From Euglena gracilis (lineage: Eukaryota): a stretch of 64,000 bases of DNA. Under the pieces are notes generated by a model. The model made no database searches and was not told the origin of the DNA. It saw only the letters and a list, made by a program, of their open reading frames with translations. This document shows positions 51 through 63,241 of this stretch, piece after piece; position 1 is the first letter of the stretch; every line of letters starts with the position of its first letter. The position numbers were made by a program, and so were the translations under genes. The stretch lies in the NCBI GenBank assembly GCA_039621445.1, contig CP154954.1:11402716-11466715 (forward strand), read 5' to 3'.

Positions 51-3000
51 TCACCGCTGCTTGTTCTCTCCGCCGAGGCTCTCCATGAAATTGAAGCTGG
101 ACATGCTGCCCGTGGCCGCGTGGGCGAAATTGAGGAACGCCGTGGGGACCTGGAGAGAGCGCCGCAGGGGGGCGAGCAGGGCTGGACGGGAAAGCCTGGT
201 GGAGGGGGGGGGTCGGACCCCCACCCACCACCCATGGGGTTGTGGGGATTTTCGTACAGCCTTGGGGAGGAAGAAGGACGGGGGGTGTCAGTCTAAATGG
301 GGGGCTACTTTTTCCCCCAAGGTCCATTTTGTAACATATTCCATTTGGATGAAATGGGCATTCAGCTTGGGGCTTCCTCTCCAAATGTGAAACCCCTGCG
401 GGTCGTGAAATGCCGCCCAACATGAAGCTGGGAGGGTGGGTGGAAGATCGGTGCGTCGACCTTCTCGCCGAAGAAGAACTTGGTGTTGTTGCCGAGGCTC
501 TGTGCGAACGCCTGGATGAGGGACCACTGCATGAACTCCGGCGTTAGGCGCTTCTGGCCCCAGGGCCCACCCTCGCTGGCGATGCACCGCCTGGCATCGG
601 CTGGCATCGAGCCCCCTCCCCCCCGGGCAATTGCGGAAAATTGCGGAAATTGTTGAAAAATTGCGGAATCTGCGGAAAATTGCGAAAATTGCGGAAAATT
701 GGGGAAATGGCGGAAAATTGTGGAAATTGCGGAAAAACTGCGGAATTTGCGGAAAATTGCGGAAATTGCGGAAAATTGTGGAAAATCGATATCCACCCTC
801 CCCCCCTACCCCTCCCTGCCCCCTACCCCCCGTCTTGCCCCAAGGCCTCCCCAATCACAAAACCGGTTGTTATGGCCTATTCCTGCTCCCCCCAAGCCCA
901 ATGAACACGAAATGGCAATCTAGACGGTACGGACGGGGAACGTTCATGGGGCATGGGGCCCACTTACAACTGAATTGCTGCAACAGACAACAATCTAGAC
1001 GGTCCGGACGCCCCCGGGTTCATTGGACATGGGGGGGGGGGGCGCAATCCTGCCGTGATTTCCATGCATTTCATTCAGCTCCCCCAGCAGCCACACCGGT
1101 AATTAACAGGAAAGCTTTGACCTCGGAAGATTCAGGGGGAAGAAAGAGCAAAAGACGGTGGGGATGGGACCGTCAACAGCTTTGCAGCACAGGTCGCTAA
1201 AATGACGGCGACCCCAACTTCTGAGAAATGGTTCTGGTTCTGAGAAGCGGAGGTCTCTCAAGTGTCGAACGCTCCCATCCCGCCCCCACAGTGATTGGAT
1301 GGGCACCAGACCCGACGCCGAGCCACTGCTCCCAGGGCCAAACGGTGCGCCGGTGCGCTTTACGAGTACTTGGCCGAGGCGATCGCCACCACCCGTGTGG
1401 CAACGACCCAGCCCCTCAAACCGGGTGAACAGCCCAGACCCATGACTGACGCTGGGGGGAGGGTGGGGGAAAACAGAACATGGGACCTCAAAAAACGCGA
1501 TGCAAAAACGCGCAGCTAAATGCAAATAAACACACAAATATGCAAAAAATTGCAAAATTTGCCAAATCAAAAAACCCACAAAAAATGCAAAAAAAATGCG
1601 TCCCCCCCCCCTGCTGGGGGGGGCGGCCCTGGCCGGAACGTCGCGGCCTCCGTCTCCGCAGTGTAGCGGCGGGCGTCGGCCTCTGCGCGCTGCCTCACCT
1701 GCAAGATGTCGCTCCCCGGCAGAGGCCATTTTGGATCCGGGGGGGGGGCCTGGGCTGTCCGGGAATTTCGGGTGGGGGGGACCACCCTCCCACCACAGCA
1801 CCATGTCTGGAAAAATTCCTCTGGCGCTGAAAAAACATGTTGACCCAAGTATTGACACCTCCGGCAAAGAACCCCCTTTTTGGCAAAAATGCCCCCCCCC
1901 CCCCCCGGAGTCGGTATACCGCCACCAGGCCCCGAAAACTTGAACAAAGAACCCCCCCCCCCGACTGAGTCCCTGGAAGAACCCTTCAATCATCAGCGCC
2001 CATCCCCCAAGAGCGCCGCCCAACGACCCCCGGGGAAGGGTGGTGAGCTCAGAGGCTGGGAAATACGGGCTGCCTGGGCAGAGCCCCGGCTGACGAGTCG
2101 CAGGTGGCGAAGGTGGGCGAGTCGAGGAGGCTAGACAGCCGCCAGCCGACGGCCCACTCTAATGTACCAACGGGCCACATCCACCGACTGTTAGCTCCCC
2201 CTCCAATACACAAATTCATTTTTTCTCAAACCACTGGACTGGGGCACAATGTGAGACTGGGGCGGAAATGGGGTCCAACTGGCCTGAAAATAACCAAAAA
2301 TGCAAAAAAAAACATGCAAATTTATTGTATCAACCACCAATTTGAGTTTCGGAGTCAGGGGGGTTTGGCACTTTCCAGAACAAAAAAAACTCTATTTCTA
2401 TCTGGCTGCACGTCGGGCGCTTGGACAGAAATTAAACTACATCAATAAAGTCCCGCAACCCCCAACGGGTTTTCTTTAAGACTTTGGTGGGGGGGGGTCC
2501 CATGGGTCGGCTGAAAAAAAGGTGCTGGCCGGGAAAAAGGTCCTGGGCTGGACCGCCCCCCTTAGGGGGGAGGGGGGTCGAGGGGGAGGTTTGGCCCGCT
2601 AGCAGCTGAACTGGCCGGGTACCCCCAAAATAGGCAAAAGAGCCCGAAGCCCCCAGCTTGACACTTTTTAAACGAAGGTTTGCAGGTGAACACCCCCAAA
2701 CCACTCAAAAATGCCGTTCATAATGGCCGTTTTTGACCCCTTTTCAAGAAACGTCGGCGCAAAGCTGCGAAAATTTTTCTGGTCCAGCCCGGCTTTGCCA
2801 GGCTGGCCGAAACTTTCAGCTGACCCTGGGGGGGGGGGGCTGTAAACCCCCCACTTATAAACCCCCTGGGGTTTATACGATCCGGTTTGGTTGGCCGGCC
2901 GAAGGGGGGGGTTTATAGGTCCCGGAATTGTTGGTGAAAATCCGACCCCCCCAAAATGACCCCGAAAACCCCCGAAATTGGCAATTTTTGGCAAATTTGG

Positions 3001-6000
3001 ACAAAAATGGCATTTTGAAGATGATCGGTCTCAAAAAATTGCCAAAAAATCAGTTTTTGGGTGGTCTGCGGCCAAAAAAATCGTCCCCGGTGGCTTCCAT
3101 TTTTCTTCCCCAGGGGGGGGGGGGGGTTATAAGTCCCGGTTTGGTTGGTCGGCCCGAGGGGGGGGTTTATAGGCGGGGGGGGGTTTATAAGTGGGGGGGG
3201 TTAGCCCAGCTGGGAGCTGTTGGCTGGGAAAACAAGGTGTTGGCTGGCTGGCCTCCCTGGGGGGGGTCCCCTCCAACTCGAACATAATCCCTGCCCCCCC
3301 CCCCCCGCGGTTTGATGGACGCTCACAGGTCATCAACCTTCAAAAAAGACTCTGCTCTCCAGCTGCGTGCGGTTCAGCGCCGCGCGCTTCTCCGCGAGCT
3401 GCATCTCCTGCGTGATGCGCGACACCGTGGCCGCCCGGTTCGCCTGTGCCTCCTGTGTGAGATGGGGGAGGGTGTGGTCGTGCAGTGCCACACTTTGGGG
3501 GGGGGGGGGCAATGCACCCCGTGTCACTGAGCCCAAAGCACCAGAGGGTTGCAAAAAATAACGAAAACTATTCCAAAACAGCAGGTGCATATTTGGCACA
3601 ATTTCATTAACAAACCTGGAACAAGAACCCTTGAATCAAGTCCAAAGCTCCGTCAGGATAAAAAAAAAAACGTGAAACCCCACAACTTGGAAGAATTCCC
3701 CATAATCTTATATCAAATTTTCGATTCACACCTCACCCAGCTGGTCAAACATCTTTCCACCAAAGCACAGCACAAGAAAAACATTGAAGAACATTGACTT
3801 AACACAGCACTCCCCCCCCCAAAACGTTTTATTCTGGAATGGGACTGAAAACCCTCGGGTTTATATATTTGGGTGGTTTACATTTGGGTGGATAAATCAA
3901 ACTTTCTGAGACAAAAACTAACACAAAATCCTTGGTCGATAAATGGGGATAATACAACACGATATGCGGAGATAACACTCATTCATTGAATGTTGAAGGT
4001 GCTAAATAGCATGTGCACAAAATGCAATCCGAGAAGCACGAGTTTTCGCACATGCAAATTGTTCTGATATGTTTCGTGTCAGTAATCTTTACATCACTCT
4101 TCTTGGGTTGCTTTGATTGATGTGTGGTATGATGGTCATGTCACAATCAAAAAAAACCCACGAAGAAGAATATTGCATGGGGTGCAAGGTTGATTTGTTT
4201 CATGTTAAAAGAGTTGAGGGTCTAAAAGTGGAGGATCTCCCACAGACTTGTGCTGATAACCATTTCATTCTGATTCTTAATTATTTGTGATTATTTGTGA
4301 TTATTCGTGACATTTCCTTAGACATAATACAATGTGCGACATTTTGTGGCATTTTTGCAGGGTTTTTGTGGGCATTTTTGTGAATATTGTGAACGTTGCG
4401 AACCTTTTCATTGAATTTTGAAAAACCTTGCACAAAATTCGGTTTCTGAATTTGCTTTTTATAACCATTAAAGAGGTGGCTGTTTCCGTCAAGCCAGGCC
4501 GCCCCACCTGCTGCTCCGTGACGGACCGCTCCTTGATAAGGGACACCTGCGCCCAGGGCTGTCCGGGTGAGCCTGGTGGGGGTCGGCACAGGGAATTCAA
4601 TGAGTGGGGGGGAGGGGTGGGGGGTGGGCCAAACTCTCACTGCCTCCATACATAAGGTTTTCCGGCGCGAGGCGCCAATTTCTTTTTGGTGCTGAAAAAA
4701 AAGCCAAAAATTGCGTTTTCTTGGACTTTCTTTTCAAAAAAAAATTGGCCAAAATATACACCCAACAATTACCTTCCCTGGCGTGAAGCGCTGGATAAAA
4801 TCCTTTTTTGGTTCCGAGGGGGGGATCCTGGACCCCCCTCGGGTCTTGAGGGGGGGGGGGTAGTCTCAACTCCCTCTCCTTCTCGCGCAAATCCAACGTT
4901 CACTCAATACCCTGCCGCCCCAACTCCCCAGCCTGGGACGTGCGGGGGGGGGGTCGGAACCGACCCTCACCCAACACGTTGAGGGGGGGGTTTCCGGGGT
5001 CCCGCGCCGCCCTGCCCGCGCCTCCTTCTCCGCGTTGATCTTCGCGATCTCCGCCTCCTTCTCCGCGCGGATGCGCTCCTGGATGCGCAGCGTCTCCTCC
5101 TTCTTCATCACCACCTCCTGGTCCCCGGCAGCCCCGAACGAGGTTGTGGCCCCAATTGCAACAGGCAACCACACCAGGGGTTTTTTTTAAGACCGGGGGG
5201 GGGGGGAGGGGGGACCGGGGGACCCACAAAAAATGGCCGAAAATCGCGAAAAGTGCTAAAAATAGAATTTTTTCGGCGCCTGCGGCGCCGAAAAGTATAT
5301 CCCACCCCCCGGGGGGGAGGGGGGGGCTCGGCCGGACCCATCCACCCAACCCCCGCCTCCCCCCCTCCGGGGGTCCAAATTTAAAAAAATCCCTGAACCA
5401 CACCCCGTTGGTCTGCTGTTTTGGGGGGATGCCAAGTGTTGATTGTGTGTTCATGGGGAGGGGTCGGTGCCTGCCTGGTTGCGGACGGGCATATTGTGGG
5501 AGCCCGCAACCAGGGCTCGCACAATAAAAAAAATATACTTATTTTATATATTTATGTATTTTATATGTATTATATAAAACATAATTGATGCCACCAACCT
5601 GGCCGTTTCCCATTTGAACATTTCATCTATAAAAATAGAATAATCAGGTAAAACAAATATGTTGATTTGTTGGTGACTAAACGCCCTCCGTCTGGTACCA
5701 TGCATACCTCCCGAAATAACTTTGCAGTGTCCTACAACTGTGCATGTCCAAGTGACTTTGAAGGGGGAATCCCCAAAAAGATCCGTCAAAATAACTTCTA
5801 TTCACAAAGGAAAAAACATAAAAAAATACATCGTTCTGGAAAATCAGGCAGCTGTAAGCACAAAAAATCGTCCAAAATGCCATAATGTTCTATTGGCCGA
5901 TGGACAGAAGCATTAAATTATGCACAATCATCAACAAAAAAATAATATTTAACAAATTCTCCTTGGGAAAATGGAAATTCCACCACTGGTTTTAGGTACC

Positions 6001-9000
6001 ACCCAAATGCCTTTGCAGGGGATGAGGGCAAAAAAGATCGGTCCACTAACTTTGGGGGCAAATTATTCGGGGGGAGGGTTTAAACTGGAAACAGGGCGAT
6101 GCAAAATTAAAGAAATGGGGGAAAAAACTGACAAACACAAAAAATTGAATAGGAAATACGCCTTTCTTCACGTGATTCTGACGGTGTGACAGACGCTAAA
6201 AGGTGGGCATGGGAAAAAAGATGCGTTCCAGGCAGGATTTGCTGCGCCACCAGCAGGCGGGCCTTGTTCTTCTCCACCTCCTCGTAGTGGTTGCGCACGG
6301 AGTCCGGGATGCGGGGCTTCGTCACCCGGATGGTGATGATGCGGATCCCTGCGGCCATCCCACGGAGATAATTTCAGAAACTCTTCAATTTCATTTAATT
6401 TCATTCAATTTCATTCAATTTCATTGAATTTCACTTAATTTCATTGTTTCATTTTATTTAAGCAACAGCTAAACCCCCCAAACATAAGACCCCCCCCCCC
6501 CTTGGGCCGATCGAGCAAAAATCAAAAAAATATGACCCCCCAAAATAAGGCCCCCCTGGAGGTTTCCAGCACCGGACCCAAAAATAAGACCCGGGTCTTA
6601 TTTTTGGGGGGTTTATGCGCATGCATTTGGATAAAACGGAGCAAATGAAAAAAAAAACACACAGCGTCACCCTCCACAGTAAAATGCAGAATGAATCATT
6701 TTTGTTGAGATTTTTGTTGGATGTGTGTGCCGCCATGTGTCATGGGACGAGAGACAGAATACTGCACTCTCTACTCTCTGAAAGGGAAAAGGTTTGGTTT
6801 GAGGAAGTGAGGGTTAAAATTAAGCTATTGGCAGGAAGGGGGGAAATGCAAACAAGTTTCCATTTATTATTTTTGCATTTTTTTTGGTGTTTTTTTTGCG
6901 TTTGCTGAAACTCAAAATCGAAATTTGTGTTTCGATTTTGCGCCTTTTTGTGCTATTTTGGGTTCCTTTTCCCAGCGAGGTTGGATTTTTTGCTGGGATT
7001 TTTTTCGACTTTTGCTAAATTTCTGTATTTTTGAACTTTTTTGATTACAAAATGCATAATTCTGGAATCAGCAGTTGCATCACCTTATCTACACCACAAT
7101 ATGGTTGCATGAGGAAAAAATCTTCCCTGGAGAAAATGATTTTTTTTCGTAGTTCTCTCCAGCAGGCAAATATACATCCGGGATCCGGGGGAGTTCCTGG
7201 AAGAATTCCCATCCAACGAGCGTTTTTTGTGTTTATTTTCTTTTGTGTCGCATTTTCGAGGGTCCAAGTTGCGTCCCCCCGTTTTTGGGATTGTCAGGCT
7301 TCTGGTACTTGAGTTTGGAGCACACCCGTGCCGTAAGAGTCGCAATCACGTTGCAGAGACTGTGCCAAGGCCTCATCTAACGTCTCAAACTTTTCAATAT
7401 ACACATCGCGCAGGGGGCGGGGCAGTTCTGAATGACCCCCGAGGTGGAGGTGGGGCATGAGGAACGCCGTTGGCCTAATTCCCCCAAGCGGCTCAAACAT
7501 TTATGGCATTTTTTTTGATTTTTTGGCGTTTCTGTTTTTTAATTTAAATCAAAGTTTAATTTTGTGTAAATTGAAAATTTCTAATTTTTCATTTAGTTTT
7601 TCTCTTTATCGGTTTCGAGAGTAACTTTGCCTTTTTTTGAACAGTCTTACAAAACCTCAGTAGATTATTTTTTTTTATATCAGACAGTGCCAAAAATCAT
7701 CTTTTTTGGACTTCTTCCGATTACACAGCAAGCCTCGACTGACAACCGTCTTGTCTCCCCTCCTGGGGGCCTACCAGCAAATAGGGTCCTGCAACCCCCA
7801 GGGGTTATAAGTGGGGGGTCGCTGAGCTCTTATCCCTTTATGGGTAAGAGTGAAGCTTGCCCCTGGGCAAAAGGGGGGTCCAACCCCCCCCCCCCTAGAT
7901 CGAACAATCGTCAAATCGCCGCAATTCACAGGTCCAAGGTCCATAACAAAGGGAAGATAGTGGTTTTTGGCACCTGGTTGTATGACCCTCCTAGTCGGGG
8001 GTTGTAGAAACCTGGTGGGTGGGGCAGGGGGAGGGGCTGGTCATTGAATCTATGGTCTGGACCCCCTCCCCCCGGTCCTAAAAAATATGCTTCCAGCAGA
8101 GAAATAAGAGAATTTACGTACACCTTGCATTTTGCATTTTTTTGGTTTTTTTTGTATGTGGTGAGGTGCTTTGTGGCCTTTCTCCTTCCCCTGCCACAAC
8201 CCCCGACCAGGGGGAGGTCGTAACCAGGTTTTTAATAGTGCTGAGCTCTTAATAAGCGCGCCCCCACCCCTTCATTGACCCCCCCCCCCATATAAACCGG
8301 CGCACTCCGTGGAGCTGTTTGGACTGAAATGCAGGGGTTTTGTGCCTGAAACGGGAGGCCAAGGGGTCAAAAATCGCTCATTTTTGGCTCAAAAACGGGT
8401 TTTCCGGGTCCGGGAGGCCAAAAAACATCGTTTTGGGCAAAAAACTTTTTTCGATTTTTTTCGACTTTTTTGACCCGGTTTTGACCCAAAGTCAATGGGT
8501 TGGCGGCCCAAAACGGGGAGCTGGCGGGTCGAAAAACGCTCGTTTTCGGCTCAAAAACAGTTTTTCCGGGTCCGGGAGGCCAAAAAACATCGTTTTGGGC
8601 AAAAATTTTTTTCGATTTTTTTTCGACTTTTTTGACCCGGTTTTGACCCAAAGTCAACGACGGGTTGGCGGCCCAAAACGGGGAGCCGGCGGGTCGAAAA
8701 ACGCTCGTTTTCGGCTCAAAAACAATTTTTCCGGGTCCGGGAGGCCAAAAAACATCGTTTGGGGCAAAAAATTTTTTTCGACTTTTTTCGACTTTTTTGG
8801 CCGAAAACGGCTAAGTCAAACAGTGGAAAATGTGTACAAAATGGCCTAAAATGGCCTAAAATGGCCAAAAAACGCCCGTATATCGGGCTAAGCGGGGAGT
8901 TGCGGGGAACCCATAATCCCAGTAGATAGAGCGTCCCAAGGGCTTCAATTTAGCTCTCTGGACATTTCTTTTGATTTTGCATCATTTTCGAGAAATTTTG

Positions 9001-12000
9001 AAAACATTGGTTTTTTGACCCCCCCCCACCCCCCGAAAACAGCCAAGTCGAACAGTGGGAAAAGTGTACAAAATGGCCATCCGGGCCGAAATCGGCCGTA
9101 TCTCGGGCAGGGCGGGGAGTTGCGGGGAAATCAAAATACTGGTAGATGGGGCGTTCCAAGGGCTCCAAATTAGGTCTCCGGACATTTCCTTTGATTTTGC
9201 TTCATTTTGGAGATATTTTGAAAATTGACATTTTTTGGCCGAAATGGCAGAGTCCAAAGGGGGGGGGGGCTTACCCAGGGGGGGGGGGCGGGTAAATCCT
9301 ACCCAGTTTGGACCCCTTCGCGCGTGAATAACTCGGGCCTGGCGGGGAGTTGGGGGTCAAACCCAGGTGATTCGGAAACTAGGAATCCAGTCGCTCGCGA
9401 CTGAAAAAAAAAAATCCGGGAACCGGGCCGGGATCATGGTGATAATCCGTCGGTTCCCGAGGTGGCCCCGACCCGGGGGGGGGGGGGGGGGGGGGGGGGG
9501 GAGGGGGGGGTCGAGGGGGGGGTTTCGCCGGTGGTAAGCTTCGCTCTTACCCATAAAGGGATAAGAGCTCAGCGACCCCCCCAAATTTCACCCCCCCCCT
9601 CGGGGGCCAATTTCCAGCGCCCAAATACCACACCCTCCTGTTTTCCTTTGGCTTTCCGTGTAAAAATAACACCCCCCCTCCCCGGGGCCCCAGTTCGGGT
9701 GCCCAAATAACGCACCGGGGGGGCTCCCCTGAACTGCAACCCCCGACCGGGGGTGGATCCCCAGGGGAGGTTGTGGGTGGGTGGGTCGGTCTTCAAAAAA
9801 AGAAAAAGTGTCCCTTGCCCACCGACCATCCCTAAAAGCCGACCACCCACCCACCCATGCACACAAAACCCACCAAAATCGCCCGGAAGCCCTCCAAAAC
9901 TGTTTTCCAGCCTGGCCTTTCGCACCCCATGGGAGGTCCAGCGGCCCAACCCACCCACCCAATCTCGAAAACCCACCCATCCACCCCTCGGGAGCCCCTC
10001 GGGAGGGTGTGTTTCTGGTAGAATAGCAACTTCCCTGTGCTTTAGAAAACTTGCGAGGCTAATCAAATCATTTTTTTGGGGAATATTTCTGACGCAAAAA
10101 AGCATACAATTAGGCGAAAAAAACATTATTATGATGATAAAATATTTACCAAGCCGCGGACACCCCCCACAGCCCCCACCACACTTCCTGCGATCAGAAT
10201 TGCCCCGGACAGGAGTGCTTCGAGCAGAACTGGTTGATCTCGTGGTGGATCTTGTCGAAGATCCGCACCAGGCATCGTTTTTAAAAAACGAAGGGGGGCT
10301 TTGCAGTCATCCCCGGCAATTGGATCTCGGCTGGGTCCCCAGCGACTTTACCGCAACGTGCATTTCCCATTCTCAAGACCTTGCCGTGCAACCCCCCACA
10401 AACCCCCAACATGGGGTTTGGGGGGGGGGGTTGTGTGGAGGGGGGTGTACGGGAATCCCCCAAAATCCCACGGATGGCGGGTCGATCACCCCCCACCCCC
10501 ATCCTGGTAGGGGGTCCGTGCGGGGTTTCGAGGTGATCAAATTGATTCATCACATTTTTCCTTTGGCGCCGAAATAATTTTTCGATGCGTGCTGTGGTGG
10601 GTGGGGGGTCAACGCCCCCTGCCTGCCGTTCAGTCCTGGGGGGGGGGGGGGCTGTGGCTTCCTTTAAAAGAGGCCTCGCCCACACTCGGTCGTAGTCCAC
10701 TCCGTACAGGCGGATCGTGTTCAGCGCGTTGGTTTTGTTCAGCAGGTTGACCACCTCAATCTGAGGGACATGTGCACTTTTTTTTTTTGGTGGGGAGGCG
10801 CTGCCGAAATTTCCTTTGGCGCCATGAACCCTCTGGAAAAACCAGTCAGTCACTTTACCCCCCGGGGGGGGGGTCGGCCACTTAGGAAAATCAGGCACTT
10901 TTTGGCCTTTCAAGGCCATTTTTGGCCAAAATTTTCTCTGGCGCCTTCGGCGCTGGTTGGCCACTCAGCCACTTTTGGGTGATTTCTGGCCTACCCCACC
11001 CCCGGGGGGAGGGGGGTCACGGCCAAAAAACCAGTCAGTCACTCTGAAAAAACCGGTCAGTCACCTCCGGGGGGGGGAGGTGGGTGGGACAGGTGTTAAG
11101 CAATGGTCCGATGGAGACCCGGGGGCTGACCATTTTTTTGGGGGGGTTTCGTTCTGGAGAAGAAATGCTGCCTTGGGAACCAGACAACGCCGTCAAAACG
11201 AGACGCGGTTGCAGCACAAAATCAAAAAAAACAGGGTGTTAAGAATGCAAAATCATTTTTTTAAATTTTTTTTAAAATGATTTTATTTATTTATTTATTT
11301 GGGAGGAACTGGCCGATGAAAATATATTTCCATTGAAAAAAAGATTGCTGGAAATGTCCAAAGGAAAAATTAAGTATTCCTTGCAAAATTTGTGGTCTGG
11401 CTTCCCTCCGTTTCATATTTGAGCGGGATGTTTAGACCCCAAGGGGGTTATATACGGGTGGTAAAACTTCCGCGACCAAAAGAGCATATGTTTCCCAAAA
11501 CAATTTTGACCGTATCTTGCCGAAATTCCAATATTTTCAAGATTTTTTGTTGGTCACCGTCTTTGGGACCAAAAATGTCAAATTCATTACCCAAACTGCC
11601 GCAAAATGATACATTTTAGGGGTTTTCCCCATCTCACGCCGCTCGCATGGTGCCTGTCATGCTTCCCCATATTGCATTTGGAGGATATTACATTTGGTTG
11701 TCAAATCACATTTCCCAGGGGTTTTCCAGGGGTTTCCCAGAGTTTTTATATCCTTGGGTGGTTGTATTTGGGGGGCATTTTCCACATTACGTAGCAGAAA
11801 AGGTAAATATAATTTTCTTTTTTCTTGAAAAAAAGTTTCCACAGCGATGATACATGGACCTAAATTTGCGTATACTTGCGGCACGGCCACGACAACGAGT
11901 GATCCATCATAAATGACAAATAAACGGAAGAAGATGCTACTGGTGACAAACATAAAACATATTGAAAGTGGCGGTGGGCATTTTCATATGAATTGATGCA

Positions 12001-13863: not shown

Positions 13864-41280
<27,417 letters not shown>

Positions 41281-42332
41281 GAGCAACGGGACTGCAGCGC
41301 AAACGGTGCATGCATGAACCCTTCGTGTGAAATGAGCACCACTTGAAAAGACCAAAAATCTCCCAGTCACCATTTCCCCATCCATAAACGATGGCATGTG
41401 ACTGCGGTGCTTGGTGGGTTGGCGGGCAAAAGCCCCCATTCTGTGTATATGACCCCCCCTCAAAAAGGGAAGATTGGTATGCTGTAAAAACAAGCTTAAA
41501 TATCCACCTGCGAGTCAAACACAAAAAATACCGCACAAATTTATACGTTGTTGCTTCGGGTATGCCTTTTTTGCTTTGACATCCAAAAAATGTGCATATT
41601 CAAAACAAAAAATTGATAAGTTGAACATCGTTCCATGCCTGCGGGACACATACCCAAAATGCATTGAACTGAACCGATGGGGGGCCAGCTGTGCAATTAA
41701 AACAGATGTGCTGATGTGCCAGCACAGAGGTGGAAAACGTCCGGAGGGTTGCAGTGCGCCAGTGTGTGGCGCTCCGTAAGGAAGGTGAAGAACGGTAGTG
41801 CAGGAGTGACGGTGTGGTGTGAGGGGAGCCGGGTTGTTACGGGGAGGGCTCCTCCGGAGCGGCGGTGGGACGCCGGGGAGGGGAGGCAGCTCTGCCTCAG
41901 CCGCCAGAAGCGGTCTCGCTAAACGGAAATCCGTTTCTCGGAGACACAAGAATTACTGAGTGCGCAAAGAAGAATATGAGACACAAAAAATGAGGACCAA
42001 AACGAATATACATACACCCCGATTTTGCTGTCAAAGAAACGCAACCTGTGGAGATTTGAGGCAGTTTCCAATATGATGTGACCTGGGTGGCCAAAAAGTG
42101 CACAATCGGCAGCATGGAGAAGACAGCTTCTTCAGGTGGTGGCAACCTCACCGCACACATTGTAACAGACCGGTGGGATTCACCCCTGATACGCCTGGGC
42201 CTTAACACGTTTGCGAAACGGAACTGAATTGCCCACCAAATATCACTTCCAGGCCATGTTTCTTCAATATCTCTGATACAATCAGCCACCAGCACCAACG
42301 TCTTGCGTATGTGAGCATGTGTGTGTGTGTGT

Positions 42333-45600: not shown

Positions 45601-47851
45601 TTCTTTTCACTCCCTCCGTGTCGTCGTTTTTTTGTTTGTCTTTGTTTTTTTTTCACTCTTTGCAGTCATGCCATTTTCTGATTCGGGGGGTTTGAGTGCT
45701 GTTTTGGGTCCTGTGGGACTTCGAGAAATTTTGGGTGCTATTACCCCCCAAATAATGCTCCCCCCCCTCGGGCCTGGACTTCGGGTGAGAAAATAATACC
45801 CCGGAGGGTATTATTTGGGGGGGGGGTTATGCTTTGCCCGGCCATTTGGCCATTTGGGCCATTTGGGGGACGGCAACTTTGGGGCGGATGAACGCCCGCA
45901 ACCCCGGTGGGCCAACGGGCCGGGGCTAAATCACAGCATTCTTTCATGTCATTGTTTGTCTTTAGCCTCTTCGTCAGATGTCCGGATTTGTAACCCCCCC
46001 CCCAAATAATACCCCCCCCCCCGGGGTATTATTTTTTCGCCCGAAGCCCCGGCCCGGGGGGGGTATTATTTGGGGGGGGTATTATTTTTCCAAAATTTTC
46101 GATATTTTTCGAAGTCCCGTAAAACCCAAAATAGCACCCCAAACCCCCTTTGGGGTCATTTTTTGCACTTTCTTGTGAAAAAACCATTTTATGGAGGTCA
46201 GATGAGCCAGAAAAATTGATTTTTTTCGTAATTTGTTGTCAGAGATTGTGGTTTTTACCGACATTTTCAGGTCAAAAATCCGGGCCTTTGGCCCGGAACA
46301 GGGGGGGGGTATTATTTCGGCGGCCGAAGCCGGACCCCGAGGGGGGGGGTATTATTTGGGGGGGGTATTATTTGGGGGGGGGTATTATTTGGGGGGGTTT
46401 ACCCCCCCGGGCAATTGTCACGCGACATATCGGGCTACATGGGGGGGGGTGACAATTTCCTGGGGTGACAATTTGGCCGGCACAGAGGGGGGTGACAATT
46501 GCCCGGGTGCGTCAATTGCCCGAGGGGGGGGGGCGGGTACCCGAAAGAACACAATGGAATTGGTTTGCCCCGTGCAAATGTCTGGCTTGGTGGGTTGGAG
46601 CGGGGCAACAACCTGGCTTGTTGGAGGGCCGCGGAGGCTGCGTCCGAGTCCACAAACTTGACGAAGCCGAACCCGTTGGACTTGCCGGTGTGGAAGTCCC
46701 GGATCACCTTCGCGTTGAGCTGCCCAAGGAATGGAATTGGTTGGTTGGAACGGTTGGGAAAACCCCGCGCGCCGGCGAAGAAAAGAGATGGGCTTTTCGG
46801 TTCCAGAGTTAGAAAGATAGAAACAAAAAGGCACCGTTGCCATTATTGTGCTGCACCAAAACTCTGCAAGTGTCAAGCGTTCGGTAGGACGGTTTCTTCT
46901 GAAAATGGAAGCTTCTCCACAGCCCAAACTGGTTCCGAATGGCCACTTGTTTTGAAGTGGGTATGGTTCTTTTGGGGGTGGGGCACTTTGGGAGTGCCGT
47001 TGGTTCTCACCCAGCCTGGACCGCCACCAGCGAAGTATCTGCGATCACCTCAAACATATTAGTGTATATGTCTTGCATTTTTTCCATTTTCTCGTAGTGT
47101 CTGTCATCCGCCGCGAGAACAAATGAAATGCAATCGCGGCCACACGAAAGCACCTTCCCTAAATTTGATGGGGTTCTGGAGCCCGACCTTCCCCGGAAAT
47201 TATCGACGTCCTTGAGGAGTTGCCACCGAAAAAGCAAGTAGAAGCCTGGACGACAGTTTCCACATGACTAGTTGGACAGTTCAGGCCAAGGGGACAACCA
47301 TGTAGGGAGGGGGGACCTCTTGGGGTGTTATGTATGGAGTACATACATACATACTACATACATATGGGAGGCGCTTGGAAAGAGGGGAGGCGACATAAAG
47401 ATTTCTGGAATATATGGACGTTCAATAAGCTCACGGTTCTCAAATATGATCTGTGGAGTGAAATTGGTTTTTTTTAAAAAAAAAGATCAGGCAAAAGATG
47501 AATTGGAAGAGATGGATGTGAGCCAACGAAATGGTGGTCGAACAACGGGAAGGAGCCTTTGAGCATTCACAACTCTGACCTCACCCGTAAAAAATGATCG
47601 CGAAAATGTCCGTGCAAAACGGGGGGCAGAAACTTCCATGATGAATGGAAGGATGAGGTTCTGCGGCGTCCCATTACCTCCTGAACTGCCAGTCACCCTC
47701 AATCGGGGCAACCCTGCCACACCTGCCCAGCCCGGGGGAAGATGGCCGCCAGCTCCGCGTCGTCAACGCTGAAGGGCAGGTTCCCGACAAAGAGCTCCGC
47801 TGCCCGGAGGGCGGGCGTGGGTCGCAGCAGTAACATGGCGGCCCGGCGCAT
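42698..47851 (-). CDS. Single-RRM RNA-binding protein, possibly with an organellar presequence
   Basis: Exons 47851-47723 (MRRAAMLLLRPTPALRAAELFVGNLPFSVDDAEL, RNP2), 46719-~46620 (AKVIRDFHTGKSNGFGFVKF, RNP1), ~43289-43255 (NGRSVQGRTI), 42810 onwards (RVQLS...). The 3' end is uncertain: in-frame TAG at 42698, or further splicing to the GC-rich segment at ~41750-41920. Confidence 0.8.
42811..43254 (-). other. Intermediate intron (RRM gene), GT start with CAG/CTG stem
   Basis: 5' GTA-CAG ... CTG-GGCCC 3'; in-frame TI-R-VQLS. Confidence 0.75.
45742..46401. mobile_element. MITE or composite with AAATAAT/ATTATTT repeats
   Basis: TACCCCCCAAATAAT ... ATTATTTGGGGGGGTTTA; a partial related copy lies at 44950-45130. 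Confidence 0.65.
46400..46539 (+). mobile_element. Small MITE with TGACAATT repeats
   Basis: Copy of 36244-36381. Confidence 0.75.
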
Positions 47852-48930
47852 CTGTGGGGGGCGTGGCGGATAAAAAAAACTGACATTTTCGGCTCCAACC
47901 AAAAATGAGCTTTTCGTATACACACGATCAGAGCTCAAAATAGTGTACACAACCGTTTTTTTCCCAACGGAAATTGTTTGGATAGGTGAGGCGGGGAGTT
48001 TCACATATTCTTGCTGGTTTCGCCGATCCCCTGAGGGCTTGGGGGGACTTTGTGCAAGCTGGACCCTACCCTACCCCCAGGTGGGGCCACAGCCAGCCAG
48101 GACCTTCTTCAAGACAGCAGCTCCAAGCTGGACTGGGAACCCCCCCCCCCCCGGGGTCGAGCGGAAATAAAATTCTTTGCAGCCTGGCGAAGCCGGAATG
48201 GACCAAAAATATTTCGGCGCCATTTTCGAGAAGGGGGGGGGTCAAAATGGCCAAAAATGGCCAGAGAAATTCCCTGACTTCCTGGAAAAAAAAGGTCAGG
48301 GGTGAACCTTGAAAATAGGGGCTACCCACCAGGATCCATCCGCTCCCACCCCCTGGCTTTGGGATCTGGCCCCACCCACATGACAAGAGGTCATCCATTA
48401 GCGGTTGGTGGTTGTTGGTTGGTCTGCAACCGGTTTCCAACTACGTGTGGTTGGGCGCTGGCCGGTAATAGCAACTGTTGTGGGATGAATAGGAAAACAA
48501 AACAATCGCCAAAATTAAGAAAATAAAAAATAAACAGTAAACTTATGAAGTTATTTCTTTTTTTTTTTTAATAAATGAACAAAATTAATTAAAAATACAT
48601 ATACATCACAGGCGAACTTTTCAGTCGGTGAAGCTGCACAACTTTGAATTTCACAGGGGCGGAGGTCCGCTGAAATATCTGGACCTGATTACTGTGGAAA
48701 AGAAACAGTTCTCCAAGATTCTGCTTCCCACAACCCAACGCGACAGCGGGGGGAACACTGCGCTGCACCGTCAGTCGCGTTAGCGTCCAGTACAGCAAGC
48801 ATTGGGCCCCGAGGCAGTCACCACGGACACAGCAACCCAGCAACGTCCGGCGGAGGGTGCTTCGTCTCGCAGCCAGGGCTGCATGGGAAGGACTGGCGGG
48901 GGGGGTCGACCCCCCATCACCCATAACCCA

Positions 48931-52300: not shown

Positions 52301-55300
52301 GGGGACGGGGTCGGGGGGGGGTCACCCCTGCGGGAGCCGGTCCGTCCCGGCCGTGGGACAACAGGTCGTCCTCCGCGGCGCTCTGCAGCAGCGGGGTGGG
52401 GTAGCACCGCTGGAAGCAGAGGTCCGCGCCGGGCGGGCGCCCCTTGCTCACGGAGACCCCACAAGCAAGGATGAGTCTTGGTCTTGTATTCTTGGGGGGG
52501 TACCAAGAGTGACCCAAGATTCTTGCCCCCCCACCCAAGACCCAAGATCTTGGGTGCAGGCAATGCGAATGTGAAGAAACAAGATGCTCAACACCAAGTC
52601 TTGGCCCTTGCCATCACATGCATGGTGCTTCACAAGGATCAAGATTTGCGTCGTTTTGCTAGGATCTCATCTAGCAACGCCTCCTGTTTAGCACGATGCT
52701 TTTCACGCAAAGCAGAGTTGCGCTCAGGCTGTTTTTTTTTTACCAACCCCGGGGGGGAGGGGGGTCAGAAGTGCCTTTGAGTGCCTGCCCAGGCAGGCAC
52801 TACCCCCCCGGGGGGGGGTTGGGTTTCGGCCTGTGCCCAGGCACTTTCCTTGGAAAATCGGCCATTTTAGGCCATTTTTTTTTGCCTTCCGGCGCCTTCG
52901 GCGCCAGGGTGCCTTGCCAGGCACTTTTGGCCAAGTTTGTTGGAGTGCCTTGGGGTGCCTGCCCACTAAAAAACAGCCTGGTTGCGCTTGGTCCTTTCTT
53001 AGGCGGCGCTAATTGCCCACCCGATTTTGGCGTTTTTTGGCTGTTTTGAACACAAAATAAAAGGGCACAAATTAGTAGGTTGAGAGGGGTGTGTGGCTGC
53101 TTTGGGCAATAATTTAACAGAAGTGGTTTTGTGCGGTATTCCGCTTAACCGATCTACGATTGTGTGTGCGTTGTGTGAGTTGGGGGTGTACTGGAACTGT
53201 TGTAAACGGCTTGAAAAACACCGAGTTTGAATGGGTGTGACACGGGGCTGTGTGTCCATGGTGTTAACCTGGTCGCAGATAATATGATAATGAGAAACCT
53301 TCTGTGACGAAAAAATTTTTCGGCCGGGGTCCCAAGACCCAAGAATCTTGTCATTCTTGGGTACCCCCCCAAGAAGCAAGATCTTGGGGGGGTAACCCAA
53401 GACCCAAGACTCATCCTTGGCACAAGAATTGGGGGGGGGGGCGAGGTATGGACCATCGAAAAATGCGATGCAAAACACGGAACAGAAAGCAGGTTCGATT
53501 TGATGCCATTTTTAGAGAAATACAAAAAAAACATCAAAAAGCGTTGTTTTGTTTCTGCAAGCTGATGCGAGAAACCTGGATTTGCTACTGAAAACGGCAT
53601 TTTTTTTGAAAAAGAAATTTTGGTCGCAGCGGATGCCGTGGAAAAATAAAAGGGTATAAAACTTTATTTCCGAGCAGAAATTGAAAATCACAAGAGAAAA
53701 ACAAACAAAAGCACAAAAAGTGGTGAAAATCAAATCCACGCGCGCGTGTTCCACTCATCTTTCACAAGGGTAAGAGTGACCGCACAGAGACAATTGGGAG
53801 GGGGCAGTAATGGTGGTGAACCCCGCAAACCGAAGCACTCGGCCCAAACCGCCCCACTGTGGAAGTCGTACAGGCGGTCCTTCAAGAACACGGTGGTGGA
53901 CTGGAAGGTCAACTCCTCTTGCTCCATCCAGTTCATGGCGGGGGGCAGGCGATGGCGGTCTGAGTGGGGACGGGACACCCATCCGTGGGACCCCCTGTTG
54001 CTGCCCTGGAAGTCGACAGACACCCCAGCGTCCGATGCAAAATCACGGAAATCACGGAGAGGCCAGGAACATACCGTTGCTTGCCAACCCCCCGGGGGGA
54101 GGGGGTCACTTTCCACTTTCAAAGAAACCAGTGAGTCACGTTTCACAAGCCAGACACCCACTTCCTCAGTCACTTTGGCTACCCAGCCAGAAAATGGCCA
54201 ACATAGCAAAGGATTTTTGTCAACCCCCCCAAAATTCTGGTGCCTGACACTTTCAGCCAATCCTGGCCGACCCTCCTCGGGGGGGTCGGACACACCCTGC
54301 GCAATGGTATGGTCCAGGCCGCGGCAATGTTCTACCCCCCCCCATGTCCAATGACCGGTAACCTCTGTCCTCTGACCGGGGGGGGGGTGGTCGTTGGACA
54401 TGGGGTCAAAAGAAAGTTGGTGGGTACCCGGGTCCCTACCCACCCAAAAATGCCCAAATTTTCCCTTCCGGCGCTTTGCGTCGAAAATTTTGGGCAATTT
54501 TGACAAATTTTTGTCCAAAGAGTGTTAAATTTTTGGCCAATTTTTGGGCAAAATTTTTCGTCCCGGCGTTTCACGCCGGGACCCAAAATTTGGTCAAACC
54601 TCCGAAAAAGTGTCCTCTGACCGGGGGGGGGTGGTCATTGGACATAGGGGGGTCGTTGGACATAGGGGGGGGGTACTGAGCGAGCCGTTGGCAGAAGGGT
54701 AGGCAAACGTCCACCTTGCCAAAAAAAACAACAACACCGTAACCCTCCCCAAAGTAACTTTGTCCCCGGTTTTGACCCCTAATCCCAATAATATTTGGGC
54801 AGTGCCCAAAACCATTGGCGGATTGATTGGCCACTTTTCCTAAAAAAAATTTGTCGTCAAATGTTGGTTTATGAACAAACATGAGGCAATGTAATGCTTC
54901 TGTTCATCAGCCAAAAGGACATTATGGCATTCCCGGCAATTTTTTTGCGCTCACCACCGCTTGGTTTTCCAAAATGATGCAGCATTTTTCCACATCTTCC
55001 CTTGTGAAGAGGGGCGGGGACAAAATATTTGGATGTATCTTCTTTTTCGGCCTTCCCCTGTAGAAAACTATTTAAATATGCAAGGCTTTAAGGCACTGCA
55101 AAATTATTGAGGGGTTTTCCTTCAACAAAAAAGACCCCAGAAAGGAGCCGCTGACCCGGGTTGTTTGCGTGCATACGTGTATGTGTGAGTGCGCGTACGT
55201 GCGTGCGTGTGTCGCTATGGCTGTGCTAATGGCGGTGACTGTGCTCGGGCAATGGAATAAATGTGCTGCCTTATAACCACGAGGATGGCGCCTTGTTCTA

Positions 55301-57543: not shown

Positions 57544-57642
<99 letters not shown>

Positions 57643-59501: not shown

Positions 59502-62500
59502 CTACTCCTTTGCAGCCCCCGTGAGGTCCAACACCAGCTTCGCCGTGATGCCGAAGCCTGTCAGCCAGAACGGCGCCCGGCTGTCTTGTGCCAACCCCGG
59601 GCCCCCCCGGGGGGCGGGGGGGGGGGGGCAGCACGGCAGCACACCGCCGGCGCATGGGACAGGAGGCAGAAGCCCAACCGGGAAACTGTATCCAGTCAGG
59701 TCACGGAGGACAGGAGAGGGGGGGGTAAATTAACCCCCCGCTCCTCCACGCCGTTGGCTTCAGGAAAGTTGGTGAGTACCCACCCCAAGCCAAATGAACA
59801 CTGCCCCCCCCCGTCTAAGCACCGGAAAAAGATGGGTAAGAACCAGGGGGGGGGGGTGCTCAATTCGCCAAAATATGGGTAAGAAGCAGGGGGGTGGTGT
59901 TTAGACAAGAGGGGCAATTTTGGGCTGCAAAAGAATTCCCTTTCGCGCCGAAAAGGAAATTTGCTCCTTATTTTGGTGGTCCACTGTTGCACTTGCAGGC
60001 ACTTGGGTGCAAAATCAACAATATCTTACCAAACCAGGCTTCAGAAATTTCCAAAATTTCGAATTTTGCGACAAATTTCTTTTAAAAAAAATCAAAAGAA
60101 GCCTCCCTGAGAAGATGACCTTTAAAAAGATGGGTAAGAACCGGGGGGTGCTGAGAAAAGGGTGGTGCTTAGACGGGGGGGGGTACAATGACAATGTAGA
60201 CAGTCTGGACAGGGAAATTCACTTGGGATGGGTTGTATGGGTATTTGCATTGTTTTAAATGGTGACAAACTTGACGGTACAACAACCCTGTTCATTGGGC
60301 AAGATTGGGCAAGGGGAGTTCATTAAACATGCGCCTGTGTGTACTGATGGGCCTTCTGGAAATCAAGGCCTTGGGGAGAAGAAATTCCGTCCTGTCTTTT
60401 GCTTTTTGATACTATGGGCAAAGAGGTCAATTTCTCGAGTAAAGCCAACTTGGGCGTAGCATGCAGAAATTCATAAAAAGTGACACGGGCGGAGATATTG
60501 GCCAGCCTTACAAGACAGGCAGATCAGCACGAGGGCCGGGAGGTTCTCGAAGTAGAGGCAGGTGGCTGCGGCCAGGGGTGGCGTGGGCTCGGCCGGACTG
60601 CTTTCGCGCCAATCGGGAAAGCCTTCCTTTTCTCTCCTGGACCCCGGGGTTCGGCCCACACCAGGTTGAGGTGTGTCCGCCCCCCCCCCCCCCAACCTTG
60701 GGGTGACTGACTGCATGTTTCCGAGCGACTGACTGTTTTCTGGCTCCAGACCTCCCACGTGGGTGGGGTTGGCCAACTTGAACCAAAGGGCCACCCGCAT
60801 GAAAGGCATCGGAAGTTTTTGAAAAAAATTGATATTCGAAAAAAAACTTGATCTTTGAATTGAATTTGAATGTTTGAACTTGAAAAAAGAGAAAAAGTTG
60901 GTATTCGAACCAGCCATTTTGTTTGGCCCGAGTGACCTGGCCCCCTGGGGGGTAGGGAGTAGCTGATGGCTTTAAAAAAAAGATTGACTCGTTTTTAAAA
61001 GTAAAATGTGACCTGCCCAGGGGGGGGGTAGAAAATGGTGAACTCCATGTTTCATCTTTGTTTCCCACTGGTAAGATTTTGCACCACAGGGGCTATTCAG
61101 AATTGGACTTATTCGAGTTTTTTTGGGTACATTTTCTTGTGCAGCACCTGAGTATTTGCACATTCTGTTTCAAAGCACAAATTTTTTCTTTTTGCTCTGA
61201 TCGACTGATGCATTTTCCCACTCCAGGACAATTGCGGAAATGCAGTGCGACACTGCATCAACGAGGGCGATGGCAAGGAATCAAAAACCTGAGTCGTTTT
61301 CCTTTCCAGATTGGCCTGCCCAAAAGAAAAGACAAACGAGGGCTCGAATCATTTGATAAAACACAAAATCCCCCCTCCCCGTCAGGAACCGTCACCTGAC
61401 AAGTTAGCGAGTATGGCCCAGATGACAACTTCCGAGCCTCAACACTCACTGGGTGGAACGCGGCGAACCTTTTGGGTGCCAATTTGGGTGCCAAACCTCA
61501 ACCCCAAATGTTTTCAAACAATTTCTTCAGAACAATTAAAACACGTAGGTGTTGTATTTGGTCATGTCTGCCAATTTTTTTTTTTTTGCAAAATTTTGTT
61601 CGTCGAGAAAACCATAAATGTCGCGAAAAAGAACGGCAAGCTATATTTCGACAGGATTACTCAATCAGGCCTCATCTGGGCTGGAAAGAGACATCACCTG
61701 ATGCCATTTTGCGTCGGTGCTTCAAATGCCTTGATGAAGCACCACGCCCCCCTGGTCGTCCCTGCGACCGCGATGATGGCCACCGCAATGACGGTGATGA
61801 GCACGGTGCTGGGGTCCACGTTGACCTTCATCGTGCCCATTGCAACCAGCGGTCCATTCTGCTGAAACCCGGAGGGCACAGGTGGGGCCCGGCTGTACTG
61901 TACTGTACTGTACTGTTCGTCAGGTGCCGCGCTGTGTTGAAAAAGTCTCACTTTCTTCGGGGGGTCCTCGGGGGATTTCCTTCTTTTTTGCGTTGCATTT
62001 TTCGAATACTTAAAAAACAATTTTTTGTTTTTTTTAAAAAAAAATCATTTTTTTTTTCCGGCAAATGTGCCGCCTAAAAACGTTTGGGCCTCGGGCACTG
62101 CTGTGTCCCCCCCCCCAACGGGCGACCCCGTGCAGGGGGTGGTTGTGAAAAAGACTCATCAATCATATCATTTATCACTCATCAATTATATCATTTGTAG
62201 AATTATATATAAGAAGACTTTTTTCTGGGAAATTATGACCTCTTTGGGCCATATACTTTCAGGTTGGCTTCAAAAAAAAAAAACACCTCAAAAACATCCA
62301 TTTCCCCTCCGGTTTGGAAAAAAATTCACGAGCAAAAAATTGTAAATGAGAAAAAAAGTGTACAAATGAAAAGCGCAAGAAAATAATTGCACCGAAAAAG
62401 AAGTTGGGACTCCAGTGCCACGGCATCAAGCAAGAAGGTGCGCAGACCACCACAGCGACACACTTGCATAGCTTTGCATGTGTGTAAGAAGGGAGTCCTG

Positions 62501-63129
62501 GCCTCATCGACGTAAGTGCCGTCTTCCAGTGACATCCTAGGCTCAATGCCGAACACATTGTTGCGGTCGGTGCCAGGGCGGAACGAACGTTACTCAGCGA
62601 CCCAAAAGCGGGCAGCCAAATGCTTGGACGTTGGCAGAGAATCAAAGAGGCTGCCCCGAGACGAGGCAAAGCGAAAAAAAAAGGAAATTCACAGCGTTTT
62701 CAAAGGAAGAGATGGCAGAAATGGGAACGGGCGACCAGAAGGTCCGGAATAAGCCTGTTTTGGGCCCGGGGGATCCCCGCCTGTTGTCACGCTTGGCTTG
62801 GCCCGAAACTTGCTGTGTGTGGCAGAAAAACAAAACACCTCTTCGGCGCCCCCAACCCTCTGGGCCTAGCCCCCCCCCCTGGTTGAGGCTTCATGGCCGG
62901 TGCTGACTTCGCTTCTGGCCCAGTCTGCTGTGTGGTGACTGGCCAGGGACCGACTTACCCCCCCGCCCGCAGGACGGTGGGCCCCCCTGCCCGAAGCTGC
63001 TGCGGGCGCCGCCGTCGAAGTAGTACCGCTCCCCCTCCATGACCTGCACGAACACGTCCTCCCCCCGCACCTGCACCGGGAACACCTCCAGCGGGGGGCA
63101 CGGCGGGGTTTGGGCGACGACGCGGCCCG
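59502..63129 (-). CDS. PSB33: TEF5/PSB33-like Rieske-type thylakoid protein, 3' part (5' exons beyond the window)
   Basis: Exons ~63129-62993 (LEVFPVQVRGEDVFVQ...GGARSSF), 62568-62503 (DRNNVFGIEP), 61858-61758 (hydrophobic VLITVIAVAIIAVAG), 60567-~60525 (TATCLYFENL), ~59570-59502 (FWLTGFGITAKL...KE*). Rieske-like C-terminal strand plus two hydrophobic helices, resembling green-algal TEF5 as I recall it; not checked by search. Confidence 0.68.
59804..60185. mobile_element. MITE
   Basis: CCCCCCCCCGTCTAAGCACC ... GGTGCTTAGACGGGGGGGGG|TA. Confidence 0.7.
60568..61757 (-). other. Nonconventional intron (TEF5/PSB33-like gene)
   Basis: 5' GAC-CAGGGGGGCGTGG ... CCACGCCACCCCTG-GCCGC 3'; in-frame AG-T-ATC. 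Confidence 0.85.
62569..62992 (-). other. Nonconventional intron (TEF5/PSB33-like gene)
   Basis: 5' GGG-CAGGGGGG ... CCGCCCTG-GCACC 3'; in-frame SSF|DRNN. Confidence 0.78.
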
Positions 63130-63209: not shown

Positions 63210-63241
63210 ATATATATGTATATATGTATGTATGTATAAAA

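Follow-up and report, generated by a model that had tools for sequence, protein, structure and literature searches.

Short CAG...CTG transposons with 8-bp target duplications and the 3/5 spacers of nonconventional introns in a nuclear segment of Euglena gracilis

Why are the nonconventional introns of Euglena gracilis cut three nucleotides (nt) outside one arm of a terminal helix and five nt outside the other? [quoted passage not shown] The splicing code itself is taken from print. Nomura et al. 2025 set it by knock-ins as 5'-N3CDG..CH'GN5-6|R, with a 5' spacer of strictly 3 nt and a 3' spacer that works best at 5 nt (PMC12501133). A preliminary description of the window, made from the sequence alone, pointed out that three and five add up to the length of the duplication and predicted that the 8 nt around the two junctions of an intron should resemble each other. 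They do: the 8-nt repeat is partner-specific, lies in the right register and goes well beyond chance. What we infer is the history by which the introns were derived, and that a new insertion would be excised without a scar. Many of the window's nonconventional introns are most likely old MITE insertions, a reading to which we give somewhat better than even chances.

The proposed route has three steps. A transposon with CAGG(G/C)..(G/C)CCTG ends would enter an exon and duplicate 8 bp of its target. A CAG/CTG helix, which this splicing needs according to print, would then form, and cleavage upstream of its 5' arm by 3 nt and downstream of its 3' arm by 5 nt would take out the element together with 3+5 = 8 nt. 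Because these 8 nt amount to one copy of the duplication, the reading frame would be restored without a scar. Later decay would bring the two copies down to about half identity and would partly erode the inverted ends.

A transposon origin of euglenid introns had already been proposed in general terms, as the preliminary description stated, and this is borne out in print (PMC3935182, PMC11282704, PMC12501133; these, like the other euglenid papers PMC11170887, PMC4770533 and PMC8101967, are cited from the portions of their text that were available). A MITE-like origin was put forward by Milanowski et al. 2014, who noted that euglenid transposons were not yet known (PMC3935182). In a 2024 Mob DNA review CAG/CTG is termed 'TIR' and the junction repeats are termed 'TSD-like' (PMC11282704), and Nomura et al. 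2025 wrote that the origin 'remains unclear' and named MITE-like elements as a possible source (PMC12501133). The euglenid introns in print are like those discussed here in their non-GT-AG borders, in the pairing of CAG at +4..+6 with CTG at -8..-6, seen in nine of the 21 non-GT-AG introns, and in their frequent direct repeats at junctions. In the available portions, the published hypothesis comes without a named superfamily, an 8-bp reason for 3+5 or free MITE copies. A published link between the number 8, the 3+5 spacers and the duplication length was not found, a point on which the supplementary junction tables of 2014, 2016 and 2025 may bear, and a description of free MITE copies was not found in the euglenid intron literature searched. 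The terms '8 bp', '8-bp' and 'hAT' have no occurrences in the review (PMC11282704), nor have 'TSD', 'hAT' and 'target site duplication' in Nomura et al. (PMC12501133). It appears that what is new is the explicit 3+5=8 sum, together with the evidence for the register and the MITE families themselves; a MITE origin as a general idea was already known.

MITE families with CAG...CTG ends

The window was searched for CAG...CTG pairs that are separated by 60-3000 bp, whose ends are complementary at 9 or more of 12 bases and whose flanks form an 8-bp direct repeat of at most one mismatch. The scan gave nine structures, seven MITEs and two weaker items; 100 shuffles gave a mean of 0.31 and a maximum of 2. 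The seven are the ones listed in the preliminary description, each found where it had been placed, with six perfect duplications and one of 7/8. They had all been called intronic, which is right for the five that lie in introns of modelled genes; the element at 14183 is intergenic, and that at 52725 lies in unannotated DNA.

Each MITE is named here after its first base. M5175 (5175-5395, with duplications 5167..5403) has the perfect duplication AACCACAC and lies in intron 7 of an erlin-like gene, 51 nt from the acceptor. The segment 4549-5403, on which the preliminary description centred, opens with the first base of intron 8 of that gene and closes where the right-hand duplication of M5175 ends. 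M14183 (14183-14325, with duplications 14175..14333; GTGCGAAT) lies between the erlin-like gene and a Ku-like gene. Two elements are found in GT-AG introns of the Ku-like gene, M16321 (16321-16614, with duplications 16313..16622; GTCCTGAT) in intron 19 and M32962 (32962-33360, with duplications 32954..33368; ACCCCAGG) in intron 4. Two others are found in nonconventional introns of the same gene. M18362 (18362-18801, with duplications 18354..18809; GCCCCAGT), whose inverted ends of 17 bp read CAGGCTTTTGCTTAAGG, is nested in intron 18, and M35810 (35810-36062, with duplications 35802..36070) lies in intron 1 between the copies CTTTTGAA and CTTTTGAT, which agree at 7/8 positions. M52725 (52725-52980, with duplications 52717..52988) is flanked by GTTGCGCT.

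The ends of the seven are complementary at 11-12 of 12 terminal bases in each case. Their inverted ends extend over 13-18 bp with at most 2 mismatches and start with CAGGG or CAGGC. The elements measure 143-440 bp and have a GC content of 57-70%. When the length of the flanking repeat was varied, perfect repeats were found for four elements at 4 bp, none at 5, one at 6, one at 7, six at 8 and none at 9-11. M16321 and M52725 are 87% identical over 150 nt beginning at CAG, M5175 and M14183 agree at 92% over the opening 38 nt, and M18362 and M32962 have internal stretches in common. The likeness of family members begins exactly at CAG and the flanks are unrelated, which identifies the mobile unit as CAG..CTG without the 8 nt and the 8 bp as a true target duplication. 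These short non-autonomous DNA transposons form at least three families in the window, all with CAGG(G/C)..(G/C)CCTG ends and an 8-bp duplication.

Two introns, Ku introns 18 (17919-18849) and 1 (35348-36560), each contain a younger MITE with its duplication intact (M18362) or at 7/8 (M35810). M18362 and M35810 are nested insertions, and the host intron may itself be an old element.

A further CAG..CTG pair at 62736-63002 (flanks 7/8, ends 9/12) was considered as an intron and rejected, because by homology its end overlaps a coding exon (63109-62993); it may be a chance match or a decayed element. Under relaxed thresholds (flanks at least 6/8, ends at least 8/12), 32 matches were obtained in the window against 9.8 in shuffles. 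The surplus suggests about 20 more decayed elements or unannotated nonconventional introns, for example at 37977-38231 and 22145-22369.

Junction repeats and terminal helices of the introns

Euglenid proteins of a public collection were aligned to the window, and three genes were obtained, all on the minus strand: the erlin-like gene, the Ku-like gene and a third gene. Their 38 introns are inferred by homology, and RNA played no part in setting the junctions, all of which rest on protein homology together with splice rules. Among public sequencing runs that contain sampled words of the window, none is recorded as RNA, and nineteen runs guessed to be RNA contain 9-18% of those words. Near the ends of the matches every in-frame pairing of donor and acceptor was considered, the spliced peptide was scored against the homologue, and candidates were retained when they scored no more than 5 points under the best. 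A GT-AG option at a compatible junction exists for 17 introns and is lacking in 21, of which six belong to the erlin gene, eleven to the Ku gene and four to the third gene. The register of these 21 was set by the longest terminal helix counted from +4 and -6. This choice is blind to direct repeats.

The 8-mers compared are the 5 exon and 3 intron nt before the 5' CAG and the 5 intron and 3 exon nt after the 3' CTG. Over the 21 introns they agree at 78/168 positions (46.4%) against 32.1% when partners are permuted (P = 1e-5). The hand count of the preliminary description, 61/128 over 16 junctions or 3.8/8, compares well with the 3.7/8 obtained here on 21 independently inferred junctions, and the expectation for mismatched partners is 2.4-2.7 of 8. 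The 11 best-anchored erlin and Ku introns give 44/88, against 2.66 of 8 for mismatched partners (permutation P = 0.0025), and all 17 non-GT-AG introns of these two genes give 63/136 (P = 4e-5). The excess is present in each of these two genes singly (P = 0.022 and 0.005), and it persists when the two best introns are left out (P = 0.004) or when two junctions placed under the homology optimum are left out (P = 9e-5). It is strongest in the nine introns with the canonical motif (38/72 vs 36.0%, P = 0.0018); the remaining twelve have a weaker one (40/96 vs 31.1%, P = 0.010).

How closely does the repeat follow the 3/5 register? Along the diagonal of the 21 junctions, the number of matches rises from 2 to 14 at offset -5 and, past +2, drops from 11 to 7. 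Of all stretches 8 wide along the diagonal, the best starts at -5, and the excess is limited to offsets -5..+2. When duplication lengths of 2-14 were scanned, a clear excess was found only at 8 (0.48 vs 0.34 for n = 14; 0.50 vs 0.33 for n = 11), aside from length 2, which covers just two positions (0.57 vs 0.43). The preliminary description had called for GT-AG introns as a control. These agree at 48.5% of positions against 46.5% for mismatched partners, so that a partner-specific excess is absent; their matches reflect consensus only and are concentrated at offsets -1 and 0.

The preliminary description had written the nonconventional introns as N3-CAG...CTG-N5. This form fits 9/21 strictly, with a purine next, and the other 12/21 are without the canonical motif. 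In 13/21 a helix of 5 bp or more sits exactly in the 3/5 register, and two more introns have one in a 3/6 register. Counting the unpaired nt outside the maximal terminal helix on the two sides (n3 and n5), a sum of 8 occurs in 7/17 non-GT-AG introns of the erlin and Ku genes and in 1/17 GT-AG introns. Minimum-energy folds of whole introns contain the terminal helix in 5/9 cases and are not decisive. As read from the window's sequence, the published N3/N5 rule is visible among its introns and is far from universal.

Beyond the CAG itself, intron ends and MITE ends have CAGG(G/C) in common. Of the CAG-type intron ends, 9/12 carry at least 5 nt of a MITE end (CAGGG or CAGGC), against 18% of 2058 background CAG sites, and 3/12 carry at least 8 nt, against 1.7% of the background. 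Of the three longer matches (8-9 nt), two are with M35810 and involve the two ends of Ku intron 8; the third is between the 5' end of Ku intron 18 and M32962. The inverted ends of Ku intron 18, about 11 bp long (CAGGGTTTGCT), resemble those of M32962 and M18362. In Ku intron 12, GCTTTTGCTT (10 nt) is present in the 5' end at the same offset as in the end of M18362, although the first paired triplet of this intron is TGT/ACA. The likeness foreseen between intron termini and MITE ends is thus present at the tips; full-length family members are lacking among the introns. A consensus published for E. gracilis in 2024, with CCAGG at +3..+7 and with CCTG at -9..-6 (PMC11170887), contains the same CAGG..CCTG as the MITE ends of the window.

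Origin of the elements and of the introns

Which transposon superfamily supplied the MITEs? The preliminary description called them hAT-like, and the 8-bp duplications (six perfect, one 7/8), the short inverted ends and the CAGG start all suit that label, but the assignment is tentative, and E. gracilis is documented to have Merlin elements whose duplications are also 8 bp long. hAT elements have the terminal motif YARNG, and those of Ac type favour the target pattern nTnnnnAn. The CAGGG ends fit the motif and the CAGGC ends deviate from it at the fifth base. Of the target pattern, T at position 2 is present in 4/7 duplications and A at position 7 in 4/7, with both in 3/7; in addition, position 3 is a pyrimidine in 6/7 and position 6 a purine in 6/7. 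Published hAT elements have 8-bp duplications and inverted ends of 5-27 bp, a range that includes the 13-18 bp measured here, and the ends of a Drosophila hAT MITE, Mar, read CAG(G/A)GG (PMC3517528). Mar resembles the Euglena MITEs in duplication length, in its short inverted ends and in this start, but it is AT-rich, while the Euglena elements are G/C-rich and half of their ends read CAGGC. By end sequence and end length the MITEs look hAT-like.

The introns may have followed the same route from transposon to intron with a different mobilising superfamily that also makes 8-bp duplications. Merlin, the one group of DNA transposons with such duplications on record for E. gracilis, is then the obvious candidate. 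The species has two Merlin families, both with 8-bp duplications and a conserved DDE motif (PMC8101967), and the literature search, which returned only that Merlin paper, did not find a report of a hAT transposase in Euglena. Merlin duplications measure 8-9 bp, which agrees with the window, but Merlin inverted ends are at least 24 bp long (24-462 bp) and have a conserved terminal GG, whereas the MITE ends found here are shorter and start with CAGG (PMC8101967). These ends, the Drosophila precedent and the positions of T and A in the duplications make a Merlin source rather unlikely. The 3+5 = 8 argument is independent of the choice, since it needs the duplication length only.

Could the introns have arisen by another route altogether, such as repair of staggered double-strand breaks, or be ancient, so that the MITEs are unrelated and both the CAG..CTG termini and 8 = 3+5 are coincidental? 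Milanowski et al. 2016 described a gapC intron that a single strain of E. agilis has; they noted 'eight nucleotide direct repeats' at the junctions of this intron and suggested break repair as the source of the repeats (PMC4770533). None of the window's introns is an outright member of a MITE family and twelve lack the motif, which would suit such a route. Yet the excess of repeats lies exactly between the inverted-repeat anchors and at length 8 only, intron and MITE ends have CAGG(G/C) in common and agree over 8-9 nt in three cases, and break repair leaves the inverted ends unexplained. We regard this route as improbable, and the strain-specific gapC intron fits an insertion with target duplication as an independent published case (PMC4770533). 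The junction repeat might instead reflect the cut-site preferences of the splicing machinery, or the way in which junctions were placed, and not a historical duplication. A purine follows the cut in 10/11 introns of the primary set at each site, counted by eye, which raises the identity, and the junctions were set from homology and from stem rules. Purines at intron +1 and downstream exon +1 are also reported in print (PMC4770533); under the duplication model the two are the same position of the duplication. What speaks against preference is that shuffling of partners retains positional preferences and still gives 32% against 46%, that the register was chosen by stems, that wrong junctions would dilute the signal and not create it, and that GT-AG introns treated alike give no partner-specific excess; this explanation strikes us as quite improbable. 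Finally, the MITEs could be derived from excised nonconventional introns that re-entered the genome, given that such introns are circular RNAs with full-length ends (PMC11282704). An excised intron would bring its 3 and 5 spacer nt with it, but the MITE families are alike only from CAG to CTG, and their unrelated, duplicated 8-bp flanks are the signature of insertion at the DNA level with a staggered target cut. We consider this reverse direction very improbable.

Against a MITE origin of the introns stand several observations, which the positive evidence has to be set beside. Short junction repeats ('slidable') occur in 84.4% of all introns, conventional ones included (PMC12501133). Within the window, the twelve non-GT-AG introns that lack the canonical CAG/CTG motif are the majority, and none of the introns has a perfect duplication or full-length likeness to a MITE family. 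Internal likeness between introns and MITEs exceeds a mononucleotide-shuffle null only slightly, and runs of G/C may account for it. The maximal stems of 6-7/17 non-GT-AG introns leave n3+n5 = 6 and not 8; in this group one spacer pair can also form. The five introns with 3/5 stems of other triplets lack an excess in their 8-mers (16/40 vs 38%, P = 0.49), and the third gene, which was found later, gives 15/32 and is alone not significant (P = 0.21, n = 4). For Ku introns 8 and 15 and intron 2 of the third gene, the junction was placed 1-3 score points under the homology optimum for the sake of the stem, and the donor of erlin intron 7 is ambiguous. A Pfam search confined to the 10 longest open reading frames (ORFs) of the window gave zero matches, and no transposase was seen among them.

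Introners of Micromonas, Aureococcus and dinoflagellates (Huff, Zilberman and Roy 2016, as cited in the literature used here) offer a comparison: in them, DNA transposons that are non-autonomous, have inverted ends and duplicate their target become introns. Those of Micromonas and Aureococcus use canonical spliceosomal sites that are partly made from the duplication. Euglena would differ in that removal relies on a separate, helix-measuring code with fixed 3/5 spacers that sum to the duplication length. Inverted ends and a target duplication at the borders, both expected of introners, are found in the 3/5 stems of the 13 introns and in the 8-mer excess given above. Copies of a repeated family, which are also expected, are represented by terminal likeness only (the three ends with at least 8 nt, and the 10 nt of Ku intron 12), and internal likeness is weak. 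Presence/absence polymorphism, a further expectation, is represented by the published gapC intron of E. agilis only. The non-canonical introns of Amoebophrya have inverted repeats of 8-20 nt and direct repeats of 3-5 nt that overlap the borders (PMC7789003). Taken as a whole, the interpretation in the preliminary description is supported as regards the junction prediction and the likeness of the ends and is tentative as regards the hAT assignment and the precise splicing of a MITE with its duplication.

If MITE insertion is the source of many of these introns, how far might it extend? A bolder view, which we put forward tentatively and think on the whole doubtful, is that the second, codominant splicing code of Euglena is a transposon-erasing system tuned to one family of DNA transposons, its 3+5 spacers being the 8-bp duplication of that family, and that most nonconventional introns are former MITEs; the cutter would perhaps be derived from the transposon or have co-evolved with it. 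Were this so, each exonic insertion would be neutral at birth, and former MITEs would make up the greater part of the nonconventional introns, which number in the hundreds of thousands. It would also provide a clear case of host splicing that makes transposon insertions in genes harmless, and it could account for about 70% of a genome's introns being nonconventional. If the spacers do sum to the target duplication, the 3-nt/5-nt rule receives a one-line explanation, and the origin of the introns becomes testable genome-wide and at the bench.

Individual introns, genes and other features of the window

All introns described here are on the minus strand. Among those of the erlin gene, intron 8 (4549..5017) has the most similar junctions: it reads GGG-CAGGGC...GCCCTG-GGCGC|A, and its 8-mers GGCGCggg and ggcgcAGG match at 7/8. 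A GC-AG alternative is possible for this intron and for Ku intron 12; in erlin intron 8 it requires a shift of 2 nt, by which the junction residue R replaces Q, and it resembles the 'intermediate' introns of the literature. Intron 10 (1715..3357; N3-CAGAG..CTCTG-N5|G) matches at 6/8 and intron 11 (556..1634; N3-CAGGGCC..GGCCCTG-N5|A) at 4/8. Intron 5 (7413..10210; N3-CGGGGCA..TGCCCCG-N5|T, 8-mers 4/8) fits the code as CGG..CCG, but its downstream exon starts with a pyrimidine. Intron 4 (10264..10680; 5/8) is non-GT-AG with a GAGGC..GCCTG variant and an uncertain register. In the non-GT-AG intron 7 (5124..6238), the 5' junction may lie at 6238 or 6247, with 8-mers of 1/8 or, in the alternative, 3/8. 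At its homology-best donor a CTG stands at +4..+6 and is unable to pair with the 3' CTG. The canonical alternative, GCG-CAGC..GCTG-CCGGG|G, lies 9 nt upstream and gives three residues fewer than the homologues have.

Of the Ku introns, intron 18 (17919..18849) reads N3-CAGGGTTTGCT..AGCAAACC(T)CTG-N5|G with 8-mers of 4/8, and splicing at its N3/N5 junction gives the peptide VPVDSIL, the same as in the homologue. Introns 8 (28055..29172; N3-CAGGCTT..AAGCCTG-N5|G) and 20 (15546..15739; N3-CAGGG..CCCTG-N5|G) match at 3/8 and 4/8. Stems of other sequence in the 3/5 register are found in intron 12 (24840..25499; TGTGCTTT/GAGGCACA, 8-mers 5/8), in intron 1 (35348..36560; a 10-bp stem AGGGCGGCCG, 2/8), which contains M35810, in intron 5 (30880..31632; GCGAAGGTTCG including G-U pairs, 1/8) and in intron 15 (21315..21445; CACGC/GCGTG, 4/8). 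In introns 5 and 12 the helix can be extended by one pair outward, which leaves 2 + 4 unpaired nt. Intron 22 (14766..15142; 3/8) has the stem GGGGCA/TGCCCC in the 3/6 register, and intron 6 (30494..30841; 4/8), also non-GT-AG, has a weak 3/6 stem. The non-GT-AG intron 3 (33510..34801; 4/8) is one in which a terminal stem was not found, and in the non-GT-AG intron 9 (26961..27992; 2/8) CAG stands at +4 and CTG is then followed by only 4 nt.

In the third gene, intron 1 (62569..62992; N3-CAGGG..CCCTG-N5|G) has 8-mers of 4/8. Intron 2 (61842..62503; N3-CAG..CTG-N5|A, 3/8) scores 2 under the best alternative by homology. Intron 3 (60568..61757) reads N3-CAGGGGGGCGTGG..CCACGCCACCCCTG-N5|A and matches at 3/8, and intron 4 (59576..60529), which is non-GT-AG and without a 3/5 stem, matches at 5/8.

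The three gene models extend on the minus strand from 13446 to 81 (erlin/SPFH-like; 13 exon matches to P0002, 367 amino acids, Pfam PF01145), from 36685 to 14590 (Ku80-like; 23 exon matches to P0123, 664 amino acids, EukProt GGOE01001433.1, Pfam PF02735 and PF08785) and from 63109 to 59505 (the third gene; five exon matches to P0124). One of the erlin exons, a homology match at 5018..5123, separates introns 8 and 7. Identity to the homologues is 58-100% per exon segment, which makes P0002, P0123 and P0124 relatives and not products of the window's genes; the protein collection has homologues only and no entry for the genes' own proteins.

The window is euglenid nuclear DNA of about 50% GC, with plentiful short exons and spacers rich in G/C runs. 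A scan by codon log-odds, with the erlin exons as training set, recovered exons of the other genes, and an ORF screen based on GC content at third codon positions (GC3) was uninformative. The Ku-like gene probably extends upstream (36700-41300), where coding-like minus-strand pieces lie at 38009-38086, 38697-38777 and 41185-41283; the Ku homologue used is N-terminally truncated, and the model is without these pieces. Minus-strand exons at 46624-46722 and 47738-47854 encode RRM-type motifs (..GFGFVKF.., ..LFVGNLPF..) and point to a fourth gene in the window. Simple repeats occupy 20110-20425, 29376-29500, 29962-30191, 57520-57703 and 63205-63499, with up to 213 self-matches in the window.

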